DNA of 64,000 bases, from the NCBI RefSeq assembly GCF_003334785.1, contig NZ_QOWV01000001.1; one strand, given 5' to 3'. Position 1 is the first letter of the stretch, and the number at the start of each line of letters is the position of its first letter. This DNA is from Escherichia coli. Lineage in GTDB: Bacteria; Pseudomonadota; Gammaproteobacteria; Enterobacterales; Enterobacteriaceae. The translations under genes were made by a program, and so were the position numbers. Below are positions 55,988 to 57,331 of this stretch, piece after piece. The notes under the pieces were generated by a model. The model was not told where the DNA came from, searched no databases, and worked only from the letters and a program-made list of their open reading frames with translations.

Positions 55988-57331
55988 ATGGCGAACAGCA
56001 TCACGGCGGATGAGATTCGGGAACAGTTTTCGCAGGCAATGTCAGCCATGTACCAGCAAGAAGTTCCGCAATATGGCACGCTGCTGGAACTGGTAGCTGA
56101 TGTGAATCTGGCTGTGCTGGAAAACAATCCTCAACTGCACGAAAAAATGGTAAATGCAGACGAGCTGGCGCGACTGAATGTTGAACGTCATGGGGCGATT
56201 CGCGTTGGGACTGCACAAGAGCTTGCTACTCTTCGGCGGATGTTTGCCATTATGGGGATGTACCCGGTGAGCTATTACGATCTCTCGCAGGCAGGGGTGC
56301 CGGTACATTCGACAGCATTTCGGCCCATTGATGATGCTTCTCTGGCGCGTAATCCCTTCCGCGTTTTTACCTCCTTACTCCGCCTTGAGCTTATCGAGAA
56401 CGAAATTTTGCGCCAGAAAGCGGCGGAGATTCTGCGTCAGCGCGATATCTTCACCCCACGTTGTCGACAACTGTTAGAGGAATATGAGCAGCAGGGCGGT
56501 TTTAACGAAACACAGGCACAGGAGTTTGTGCAGGAAGCCCTGGAAACGTTTCGCTGGCACCAGTCAGCAACGGTAGATGAAGAAACCTATCGCGCATTGC
56601 ACAACGAACATCGGTTGATTGCTGATGTGGTCTGTTTTCCTGGATGCCATATCAACCACCTGACGCCACGTACGCTGGATATTGACCGGGTGCAGTCGAT
56701 GATGCCTGAATGCGGAATTGAACCCAAAATTCTCATCGAGGGGCCGCCGCGCCGCGAGGTACCGATTTTACTACGCCAGACCAGCTTTAAAGCACTGGAA
56801 GAGACGGTGTTGTTTGCGGGGCAGAAACAGGGCACGCATACCGCGCGCTTTGGTGAAATTGAGCAGCGTGGCGTGGCATTAACGCCGAAAGGGCGACAAC
56901 TGTATGATGATCTTCTGCGTAACGCTGGAACCGGGCAGGATAATCTCACTCACCAAATGCATTTACAGGAAACCTTCCGCACTTTTCCTGACAGTGAGTT
57001 TTTAATGCGTCAGCAAGGGTTGGCATGGTTCCGGTACCGTCTGACGCCTTCGGGTGAGGCGCATCGTCAGGCGATTCATCCTGGAGACGATCCACAGCCC
57101 TTAATTGAACGTGGTTGGGTAGTGGCGCAACCCATCACCTATGAAGATTTCTTGCCCGTTAGCGCGGCGGGGATCTTCCAGTCAAATCTGGGTAATGAAA
57201 CGCAGACACGCAGTCACGGTAATGCCAGTCGCGAAGCATTTGAGCAGGCGTTGGGTTGTCCGGTTTTGGATGAGTTCCAGCTTTACCAGGAAGCGGAAGA
57301 ACGCAGTAAACGTCGCTGTGGTTTGCTTTAA
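55988..57331 (+). CDS. ydcJ: DUF1338-family protein YdcJ (family includes 2-oxoadipate dioxygenase/decarboxylase HglS), 447 aa
   Basis: 447-aa ORF divergent from ydcI; family assignment from recall of YdcJ/DUF1338. Confidence 0.8.
   Translation: MANSITADEIREQFSQAMSAMYQQEVPQYGTLLELVADVNLAVLENNPQLHEKMVNADELARLNVERHGAIRVGTAQELATLRRMFAIMGMYPVSYYDLSQAGVPVHSTAFRPIDDASLARNPFRVFTSLLRLELIENEILRQKAAEILRQRDIFTPRCRQLLEEYEQQGGFNETQAQEFVQEALETFRWHQSATVDEETYRALHNEHRLIADVVCFPGCHINHLTPRTLDIDRVQSMMPECGIEPKILIEGPPRREVPILLRQTSFKALEETVLFAGQKQGTHTARFGEIEQRGVALTPKGRQLYDDLLRNAGTGQDNLTHQMHLQETFRTFPDSEFLMRQQGLAWFRYRLTPSGEAHRQAIHPGDDPQPLIERGWVVAQPITYEDFLPVSAAGIFQSNLGNETQTRSHGNASREAFEQALGCPVLDEFQLYQEAEERSKRRCGLL

Follow-up and report, generated by a model that had tools for sequence, protein, structure and literature searches.

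The HglS reaction is the oxidative decarboxylation of 2-oxoadipate with an intramolecular hydroxylation, yielding D-2-hydroxyglutarate and CO2. Its stereochemistry and kinetics were measured on the enzyme of Pseudomonas putida KT2440 (PP_5260; PDB 6W1G and 6W1H), for which 2-oxoadipate is the sole substrate accepted among seven 2-oxo acids (PMC7286885). P. putida differs from Escherichia coli in that its growth on D- and L-lysine depends on hglS, a gene induced there by lysine and 2-aminoadipate. Acting at an adjacent step of this pathway in P. putida is HgcR (PP_4494), a D-2-hydroxyglutarate-sensing LysR activator of a ydiJ-type dehydrogenase gene; the pathway is thus under LysR control elsewhere (PMC12297413). 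HgcR is comparable, by description, to the LysR regulator YdcI encoded beside hglS in E. coli, with the difference that the HgcR pair consists of a regulator and a dehydrogenase.

The best curated model for YdcI is that of PcaQ, the LysR activator of pcaDCHGB in Agrobacterium tumefaciens and Sinorhizobium meliloti, to which it aligns end to end. Nearest by sequence among solved structures are CatM and BenM, the muconate-sensing regulators of Acinetobacter baylyi. The effectors of PcaQ, CatM and BenM are C6/C7 carboxylates, and the operator of BenM and CatM is a dyad, ATAC-N7-GTAT, with T-N11-A spacing.

The locus described here lies in a stretch of 64,000 nucleotides from E. coli (contig NZ_QOWV01000001.1), referred to as the window. 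On its plus strand, ydcJ (= hglS) is an ATG-started open reading frame of 447 amino acids at 55988..57331, encoding an Fe(II)/O2-dependent 2-oxoadipate dioxygenase/decarboxylase. Divergent from it is ydcI (54848..55771, minus strand), annotated as a LysR-type regulator of 307 residues, where the mechanical list of reading frames gives a longer, GTG-started frame of 354 residues; separating the two genes is a short shared spacer of 216 bp (55772..55987). A preliminary description of this DNA had called ydcJ a DUF1338 gene divergently paired with a LysR neighbour, and both calls are borne out, the first at its exact coordinates. The 2.9-kb ydcI–ydcJ stretch is 100% identical to that of K-12 MG1655, in which ydcJ is b1423 and the spacer spans NC_000913 1,495,072–1,495,287, and the locus is present in 5,406 of 5,426 complete E. 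coli genomes (at least 80% coverage). The two genes are a real, conserved pair, and chance open reading frames are ruled out.

The pair is already well known from E. coli K-12 and largely ordinary: both genes are named, the structure and activity of the enzyme are published and the regulator has a literature of its own, so that the pair itself brings nothing new. New here are the placement of YdcI in the PcaQ clade, the restriction of the pairing to Enterobacterales, a candidate YdcI operator and the absence of this operator from the E. coli spacer.

An intact HglS with every catalytic and specificity residue in place, YdcJ belongs to the non-haem Fe(II)/O2 enzymes with a VOC fold. It matches the Pfam family HGLS (PF07063) over its whole length (residues 14–400, E = 1.6e-161), scores 743 bits against the NCBIfam equivalog HGlSynHglS (NF049974; cutoff 550) and gives, with P. 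putida HglS (6W1G, E = 1e-157), an alignment that spans both proteins at about 59% identity. PDB entry 2RJB, from which it differs at one residue, is the solved structure of YdcJ. A word-indexed homologue search with YdcJ as query returned near-identical E. coli and Shigella sequences only, and a search of a representative library was used instead. The Fe(II) triad of HglS (H70, H226 and E294) is retained as H68, H224 and E290, and these columns are conserved in 50, 50 and 49 of 50 diverse representatives, respectively. Also identical are the specificity arginine (R72, equivalent to HglS R74; arginine in 47 of 50) and the substrate loop (V391/S392, equivalent to V402/S403; serine in 46 of 50). 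The assignment of the DUF1338 family to 2-oxoadipate dioxygenase/decarboxylases, made before any database search, was thus right by Pfam, by NCBIfam and by residues.

The preliminary description had further held that the substrate in this organism is not established. In vitro it is established, because an assay of the purified E. coli protein is published: Thompson et al. (2020) observed by LC-MS the conversion of 2-oxoadipate to 2-hydroxyglutarate by YdcJ, an activity described as identical to that of HglS (PMC7286885). The statement holds for the physiological source of 2-oxoadipate alone, as E. coli, unlike P. putida, has no known route forming this compound (PMC7286885). The neighbours of the pair in E. 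coli are trg and opgD and not, as in P. putida, lysine-catabolic genes; the lysine/2-aminoadipate catabolic context (AmaA, AmaB, 2-aminoadipate transaminase, YdiJ) is absent around ydcJ. Encoded elsewhere in the genome (MG1655) is ydiJ, annotated as D-2-hydroxyglutarate dehydrogenase, whose product would return D-2-hydroxyglutarate to 2-oxoglutarate. In E. coli, YdcJ probably serves to scavenge or clear 2-oxoadipate or 2-aminoadipate, with entry into the TCA cycle by way of D-2-hydroxyglutarate and YdiJ.

By sequence comparison, YdcI is a LysR regulator with PcaQ as its closest clade, without being a certified PcaQ. Its top-scoring NCBIfam model is TIGR02424 (PcaQ), at 287 bits against an equivalog cutoff of 303.8 and 136 bits for the next model; orthologues from other genera score 276–299 bits against the PcaQ model. 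YdcI has the usual LysR build, an N-terminal HTH followed by the substrate-binding domain: residues 9–303 of the 307 align to this model and to many other LysR models, and full-length LysR structures are matched as well. Similarity to CatM and BenM is only E = 1e-28 to 1e-21, and their target genes are others. Unlike the organisms in which PcaQ was described, E. coli has no pca genes: matches to pcaHG occur in 4 of 5,426 genomes only, those of strains JME64–67 (pcaH at about 69% identity in each), which are presumably engineered. The reported phenotypes of E. coli YdcI also differ from those of PcaQ and concern pH stress, acetate/gltA, iraP, persistence and starvation adaptation.

Across bacteria, a YdcI orthologue (65–97% identity) lies upstream and divergent of hglS in 32 of 34 Enterobacterales loci, whereas the 47 loci of other orders have no such arrangement; the adjacency is confined to Enterobacterales. 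In 20 of the Enterobacterales loci ydcI and hglS are direct neighbours. The intervening genes elsewhere are pcaHG in six loci, a PcaK-like transporter gene in three (Pantoea, Mixta) and, in Citrobacter, an Mn-pyrophosphatase gene. The pcaHG-linked orthologues, a neighbourhood shared with PcaQ, are found in Kluyvera, Pseudocitrobacter, RIT691, Cedecea sulfonylureivorans and Pluralibacter gergoviae. Outside Enterobacterales hglS belongs to canonical lysine/2-aminoadipate catabolic clusters, next to genes for 2-aminoadipate transaminase, YdiJ, AmaA and AmaB (for example, in Halomonas and Rhizobium) and often beside a GcvA-type LysR regulator.

We infer CATAAC-N5-GTTATG as a candidate recognition site of YdcI. 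The motif was noticed first in hglS loci and was afterwards tested on the upstream regions of published YdcI targets. The main text of the ChIP-exo study gives nhaA, dtpA, lldP, gltP, gltA and yobA as targets (PMC6237786). In 3,077 bp upstream of six published targets, ATAAC-N5-GTTAT with at most one mismatch occurs six times against 0.16 expected, a number reached in none of 2,000 simulations, and the sites score 13.8–18.2 bits with a position weight matrix (PWM). The candidate site is of a similar operator type to that of PcaQ in S. meliloti, ATAaccgggggatTAT, which is centred at -65.5 (PMC5002191). Its core, ATAAC-N5-GTTAT, resembles the BenM/CatM operator in its T-N11-A spacing.

Upstream of hglS, 13 of 31 loci carry the box at -123..-142, about 131 bp before the start codon, where chance would give 0.54 loci. 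Most of these 13 boxes score 11–18 bits and two score 8.1 and 9.3 bits; the sequence around them is not alignable between genera. In the pcaHG genomes the box lies about 95 bp from the start codon of pcaH, is well placed for that gene and could have pcaH instead of hglS as its primary target. No convincing YdcI box is present in the Citrobacter spacers or in the ydcI/pcaK-like–hglS spacers of Pantoea, Mixta and Erwinia. The E. coli spacer likewise lacks a canonical box, its best match to ATAAC-N5-GTTAT having three mismatches and its best PWM score, 2.5 bits, being at background level.

A YdcI-type box held at a fixed distance before hglS in about 40% of enterobacterial loci argues that hglS was ancestrally under YdcI control. 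Since the operator precedes hglS in relatives and is absent from E. coli, the regulatory link between ydcI and hglS is likely ancestral and has probably decayed in E. coli. As a whole, the reading that YdcJ is HglS and that its ancestral link to YdcI has decayed in E. coli is the one we favour, with confidence a little above even. In the ancestor, hglS would have been controlled by YdcI through a box sometimes shared with divergent pcaHG; the Escherichia lineage would then have lost the pca genes and the operator upstream of hglS, so that E. coli ydcJ most likely runs on its own conserved proximal promoter block. Control of ydcJ would be exerted by stationary phase, by Csr and possibly by an anti-Shine–Dalgarno hairpin, with an input from YdcI that is at most weak or indirect, and YdcI would now act mainly on other targets (gltA, gltP, lldP, dtpA and iraP).

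The elements of the E. coli spacer bear on this reading and on the model of the preliminary description, a working LysR divergon in which YdcI binds the spacer and switches ydcJ on, sensing 2-oxoadipate, 2-aminoadipate or a related dicarboxylate. Linked to ydcI is block A, a dyad GTTGTT-N7-GATAAC at 55812..55830 (consensus GTTATC-N7-GATAAC), which is conserved in 18 genera and keeps its distance of 41 bp to the start codon of ydcI even where pcaG or the pyrophosphatase gene lies next to it. Also ydcI-linked is block A2, GCAAAATATTATTAACA at 55837..55853, conserved and always 66 bp away from the start codon of ydcI, whatever the gene arrangement. Consensus scanning predicts two sigma-70 promoters, a distal one towards ydcJ (CTGACA-16-TATGAT, 55800..55827, plus strand) and one towards ydcI (TTAATA-17-TATCAT, 55823..55851, minus strand; PMC3946193), and block A overlaps both -10 hexamers. 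An RpoD-holoenzyme SELEX peak falls in the spacer, and the same distal ydcJ promoter was predicted in that study (PMC3946193). As a general YdcI motif, the dyad GTTATC-N7-GATAAC was rejected because it is not enriched at published targets (two upstream regions against 1.6 expected); it is kept as a candidate ydcI operator.

A second, weaker dyad, GTTTTC-N7-GATCAC at 55894..55912, shares its pentamers with block A. Matches to the block A dyad with up to two mismatches number only six in the 64-kb window, two of which, including this one, are in the spacer; the left half of this second dyad lacks conservation across genera. Abutting it is the hglS-linked block B, GATCACAGTTTGTAAATTCTTCC at 55906..55928 (plus strand), a presumed proximal promoter or operator whose position relative to the start codon of hglS, -83..-60, is the same throughout the Enterobacteriaceae and Erwiniaceae. 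Block B includes a GATC site and a sequence resembling a degenerate YdcI box, ATCAC-N5-GTAAA; inspected by eye as a CRP, FNR or Fur site, it has half-site resemblance only. Lelliottia keeps block B with no ydcI within 7 kb. Wherever genes intervene the two blocks part, A remaining with ydcI and B with hglS, and from genus to genus their separation differs by more than 150 bp.

For a working divergon in E. coli speak the conserved divergent arrangement (the 216-bp spacer here; 20 directly adjacent Enterobacterales loci), the YdcI-type box before hglS in 13 loci, the pentamers shared by the two spacer dyads, the resemblance of block B to a degenerate YdcI box, the overlap of block A with the -10 hexamer of the distal promoter predicted for ydcJ, the joint rise of ydcI and ydcJ at stationary-phase entry and the kinship of YdcI with sensors of C6/C7 carboxylates. 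Against it, the spacer of E. coli lacks a canonical box, the A-type dyad is unenriched at YdcI targets, and ydcJ is not named as a target in the main text of the ChIP-exo study (PMC6237786). The separation of blocks A and B and their variable spacing are, in addition, a misfit with the fixed geometry of LysR regulation. We therefore regard a working divergon in E. coli as doubtful, although residual direct control of ydcJ is possible because LysR proteins can use weak sites, such as the degenerate box of block B and the second dyad. The substrate-inducible unit proposed beforehand thus gains support across Enterobacterales, where the operator precedes hglS in 13 of 31 loci, and finds none in E. 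coli, where the best site scores 2.5 bits.

Quite improbable is an adjacency that is history only, with YdcI as the enterobacterial PcaQ of pcaHG, pcaK and itself and hglS never under its control: the top score of the PcaQ model, the intervening pcaHG or PcaK-like transporter genes in ten loci, a box at a distance from pcaH typical of LysR activators, the promoter block that Lelliottia hglS keeps as its own with no ydcI nearby and the lack of any hglS–YdcI pairing outside Enterobacterales all agree with it, but in eight genera whose locus lacks pcaHG the distance between box and hglS is unchanged, with a variable distance from the box to ydcI and with flanks too divergent to align. Had the box been left over from a lost pcaH promoter, decay would be expected. 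The protocatechuate pathway is not known to pass through 2-oxoadipate, so the co-location of hglS with pca genes is unexplained either way.

Within the favoured reading of an ancestral, decayed link, a more specific and tentative proposal, which we hold to be possible but on the unlikely side, is that YdcI descends from a PcaQ-type aromatic-acid regulator that once co-controlled hglS and the protocatechuate genes from one spacer and was orphaned in Escherichia. With the operator and the pca genes deleted, the orphan regulator would have been rewired to the central-metabolic and stress genes gltA, gltP, lldP, dtpA and iraP. If true, this rewiring would explain the pleiotropy of YdcI (pH tolerance, growth on acetate, persistence and starvation adaptation), and the genera that keep the operator would co-regulate 2-oxoadipate/D-2-hydroxyglutarate metabolism with aromatic-acid catabolism. 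The candidate operator is now testable and could clarify the poorly understood YdcI regulon, with its part in persistence and starvation adaptation; its comparison between genera could reveal whether E. coli metabolizes 2-oxoadipate by a pathway under regulation or by a leftover one.

Proximal to ydcJ are two further elements. The conserved CTACACTCCAG at 55951..55961 (plus strand), fixed at -37 from the start codon, contains CTACACT, by the consensus a possible stationary-phase-type (sigma-S) -10 element. In O157:H7, ydcJ and ydcI are both induced on entry into stationary phase (PMC2241611). Overlapping this element is an inverted repeat, CUCCAG-N11-CUGGAG (55956..55978, plus strand), a possible hairpin of the 5′ untranslated region in which an anti-Shine–Dalgarno segment pairs with the Shine–Dalgarno sequence GGAGG (55975–55979). 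The hairpin is part of the minimum free energy fold, with a z-score of only -1.3, and in the covariation test 83% of cells are paired against 34–60% in slid controls; its covariation is not significant, and an Rfam scan of the spacer and ydcJ gave no RNA family. Removal of CsrB/CsrC elicits a strong response of ydcJ (PMC5389547). As to naming, RefSeq/PGAP gives the ydcJ product as HglS, and the curated MG1655 reference gives it as a DUF1338 protein only, a label that could be updated to HglS.

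Upstream of ydcJ (55988-57331, +) and divergent from it is the LysR-type regulator gene ydcI, an arrangement given in the preliminary description and confirmed by the ORF list and the annotation. The ATG-started ydcJ frame has exactly these ends in the ORF list and encodes 447 aa; ydcI is annotated at 54848-55771 (-) with 307 aa, a 354-aa GTG frame in the mechanical ORF list being an extended form of it, and the spacer between the genes is 216 bp. This 2.9-kb stretch is 100% identical with E. coli K-12 MG1655 and is found in 5406 of the 5426 complete E. coli genomes (at least 80% coverage). 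The annotated gene order is cybB, rydC, hokB/sokB, trg, ydcI (-), ydcJ (+), opgD, ydcH, rimL and ydcK. By its annotation, gap (gapC; window ~50400-51400, -) next to cybB is a pseudogene, carrying a frameshift and an internal stop. Rfam places the sRNA RydC (52143-52206, -; 92.5 bits) and a sok antitoxin RNA (52766-52917, -; 109.7 bits) beside hokB/mokB, a short way upstream of trg; a rydC'-lacZ transcriptional fusion is unchanged by ydcI deletion (preprint).

YdcJ is the known 2-oxoadipate dioxygenase/decarboxylase HglS, and its biochemistry is settled by the literature. The earlier assignment of this DUF1338 protein to the HglS family is borne out by a whole-length match to Pfam HGLS (PF07063, E=1.6e-161), by the NCBIfam HglS equivalog (743 bits, cutoff 550) and by conserved residues. 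A single residue separates YdcJ from PDB 2RJB, and YdcJ can be aligned with P. putida HglS (6W1G) over the entire length. An alignment of YdcJ, HglS and 48 further diverse sequences (the 50%-identity library contains 1239 relatives) matches H70/H226/E294, the iron triad of HglS, with YdcJ H68, H224 and E290, the specificity arginine R74 with R72, and the substrate loop V402/S403 with V391/S392; the triad, R74 and S403 columns are invariant or nearly so, and the V402 column has V in only 25 of 50 sequences. For P. putida HglS, 2-oxoadipate is the sole substrate among seven 2-oxo acids, and R74A abolishes activity (PMC7286885). The preliminary description had considered the substrate in E. coli not established; purified E. 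coli YdcJ had already been reported to convert 2-oxoadipate to 2-hydroxyglutarate with 'identical activity to HglS', another E. coli lysine route or another use of 2-oxoadipate being left undecided (Thompson et al. 2020, PMC7286885). RefSeq PGAP already names the gene hglS, while the curated MG1655 record still reads 'DUF1338 domain-containing protein YdcJ'; YdiJ, the D-2-hydroxyglutarate dehydrogenase of the next step, is encoded elsewhere in MG1655 (annotation). In the literature ydcJ also turns up in several papers on psyllid genomes and transcriptomes, apparently as an insect-acquired bacterial gene.

YdcI, a full-length LysR-type protein, belongs by sequence to the PcaQ clade. Its best curated model by a wide margin is PcaQ (TIGR02424; 287 bits, below the cutoff of 303.8), the next model scoring 136 bits, and YdcI orthologues of five further genera reach 276-299 bits with the PcaQ model; among solved structures, CatM and BenM are the nearest. 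Through the published ChIP-exo targets nhaA, dtpA, lldP, gltP, gltA and yobA, E. coli YdcI has been tied to pH tolerance and acetate growth (PMC6237786), and further to iraP (PMC11441560), to gadBC and acid survival (PMC10746267) and to the HipQ high-persister phenotype (PMC7049120). The main texts of these studies do not name ydcJ as a target.

The pairing is a feature of the Enterobacterales. A scan of one genome per species gave 80 hglS loci. Of 34 Enterobacterales loci, 32 have a divergent gene for a YdcI orthologue (65-97% identity) on the upstream side of hglS; Lelliottia and Erwinia mallotivora lack this arrangement, as do all 47 loci of other orders. Genes neighbouring hglS in Halomonadaceae, Rhizobium and others encode 2-aminoadipate transaminase, YdiJ, AmaA (L-pipecolate oxidase) and AmaB (piperideine-6-carboxylate dehydrogenase), and often there is a divergent GcvA-type LysR gene that is not a YdcI orthologue. 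In 20 Enterobacterales loci no gene separates ydcI from hglS. Six loci have pcaH and pcaG (protocatechuate 3,4-dioxygenase; 370 and 258 bits) between them, on the ydcI strand: Kluyvera, Pseudocitrobacter (two), RIT691, Cedecea sulfonylureivorans and Pluralibacter gergoviae. Citrobacter has a Mn-pyrophosphatase gene in this place, and Pantoea, Mixta and Erwinia (the last without nearby ydcI) have a gene for a PcaK-like aromatic-acid/H+ symporter immediately before hglS, in the same orientation. E. coli lacks pcaHG, with matches in only 4 of 5426 genomes (JME64-67), each over pcaH at ~69% identity; these are presumably engineered strains.

Within the pcaH-hglS spacer of the pcaHG-bearing genomes is the sequence ATAAC-N5-GTTAT, which resembles the S. 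meliloti PcaQ site ATAaccgggggatTAT (PMC5002191) and which we refer to here as the box, a candidate YdcI operator. With one mismatch allowed, 13 of 31 Enterobacterales loci have it between -123 and -142 relative to the hglS start codon, eight of these 13 lacking pcaHG, and two more loci have it off position; shuffled sequence gives 0.54 loci (maximum 3). As the DNA from the box to the conserved hglS-proximal region cannot be aligned across genera, selection appears to act on both the box and its position. Six published E. coli targets (gltA-sdhC, nhaA, iraP, lldP, gltP and dtpA) have the pattern six times in their upstream sequence (3077 bp), spread over five regions, where 0.16 is expected, and 0 of 2000 first-order Markov simulations came to six; the pattern was first spotted in hglS loci, and the sites were set against regions rather than ChIP-exo peak coordinates. 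These boxes have common flanks, CATAAC...GTTAT. With a weight matrix built from the six target sites only, most box-bearing genera reach 11-18 bits around -135 relative to hglS, and two reach 8.1 and 9.3. Owing to the adjacency and to a YdcI-type box positionally tied to hglS, the comparison supports an ancestral YdcI-hglS regulatory link in Enterobacterales.

In the E. coli ydcI-ydcJ spacer there is no box, the best weight-matrix score anywhere being 2.5 bits, which is background; by the same matrix it is absent from E. albertii, Citrobacter, E. cloacae, E. asburiae and Lelliottia. The comparison indicates that the box and the pca genes were lost in Escherichia. A fully working ydcI-ydcJ divergon in E. 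coli, which the preserved gene arrangement would allow and the boxless spacer argues against, is a less likely reading. Less likely again is a purely historical adjacency, against which stands the positioned box in loci without pcaHG. The earlier interpretation of the pair was partly right and behind the published literature, the ydcI-ydcJ finding being already known; what is new is comparative only, namely the PcaQ ancestry of YdcI, the candidate operator and its loss before E. coli ydcJ, all checkable by simple binding and reporter assays.

Aligned across 18 genera with directly adjacent genes, the spacer is conserved in two blocks; the segment between them varies and cannot be aligned. Block A contains a dyad (55812-55830 in E. 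coli; consensus GTTATC-N7-GATAAC) and a second element, GCAAAATATTATTAACA (55837-55853), with the ydcI start codon a fixed 41 and 66 bp away; block B contains cGATCACAnnTTnGTAAATTCTTCC (55906-55928) and TCTACACTCCAG (55951-55961), fixed at about -82 and -37 from that of hglS. Both spacings persist despite intervening genes, and that of block B also in Lelliottia (no ydcI within 7 kb) and Erwiniaceae. Block A thus tracks ydcI and block B hglS, giving each gene a separate conserved control region. A consensus scan predicts divergent sigma-70-like promoters at 55800-55827 (+, CTGACA-16-TATGAT) and 55851-55823 (-, TTAATA-17-TATCAT), whose -10 hexamers both fall within the block A dyad; this same pair was the prediction of Shimada et al. 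for a SELEX peak of RpoD holoenzyme in the spacer, where they also flagged H-NS (PMC3946193).

Having lost the box, E. coli ydcJ would most likely run from its own proximal block. Residual YdcI input may persist: block B holds ATCAC-N5-GTAAA (three mismatches to the box), and a second weak dyad, GTTTTC-N7-GATCAC, lies at 55894-55912. In every member of the Enterobacteriaceae and Erwiniaceae examined, the heptamer GATCACA (55906-55912, +) is invariant and sits ~82 bp ahead of the hglS start codon; within it are a GATC (Dam) site and a single CRP-like half-site, TCACA. There are three hints as to how ydcJ is controlled. One is a -10-like CTACACT that resembles the stationary-phase consensus, together with the induction of both ydcJ and ydcI at stationary-phase entry in O157:H7 (PMC2241611); another is a strong response of ydcJ to CsrB/CsrC removal (PMC5389547). 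The third is in the presumed ydcJ leader, where an inverted repeat, CTCCAG-N11-CTGGAG (55956-55978, +), would sequester the Shine-Dalgarno GGAGG, a possible hairpin of CUCCAG with CUGGAGG. By eye, variants in Siccibacter (CTCGTG/CACGAG) and Pluralibacter gergoviae (CCTG/CAGG) are apparently compensatory, and pairing in Cedecea variants would persist through G-U wobbles; a formal covariation test of the hairpin was not significant, leaving the fold without statistical support.

Transcription from a conserved -35/-10-like pair, TTGTCA-18-TAACAT (55777-55806, -), would begin at the ydcI ATG or no more than a few bases away. As no Shine-Dalgarno sequence precedes this ATG (55771), translation of ydcI may proceed with a very short leader or none; under acid stress YdcI is reportedly regulated at the translation level (ribosome profiling, PMC10746267). 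Inside the ydcI coding sequence is a one-mismatch box, ATAACCGAAGGTAAT (55413-55427), with just one other such match in the 64-kb window; it could be chance or an internal autoregulatory site.

Following hglS in most Enterobacteriaceae and Erwiniaceae, but not in Escherichia or Citrobacter, is a type-B carboxylesterase gene (PF00135, E=1e-86; 8363-9889, +, in compared locus L013, with equivalents in 21 loci). Most Enterobacteriaceae have 19-45 bp between the two genes, Pantoea and Mixta a wider gap of ~230-420 bp; where the distance is short, they probably form one operon. Past the esterase (L013:9882-12806 and equivalents), a GcvA-like LysR gene is divergent from genes for a YbdL-like aminotransferase of the methionine/aminoadipate class and an ArgT-like lysine/arginine/ornithine-binding protein. 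This set, without counterpart at the E. coli locus, could be a feeder module converting 2-aminoadipate to 2-oxoadipate.
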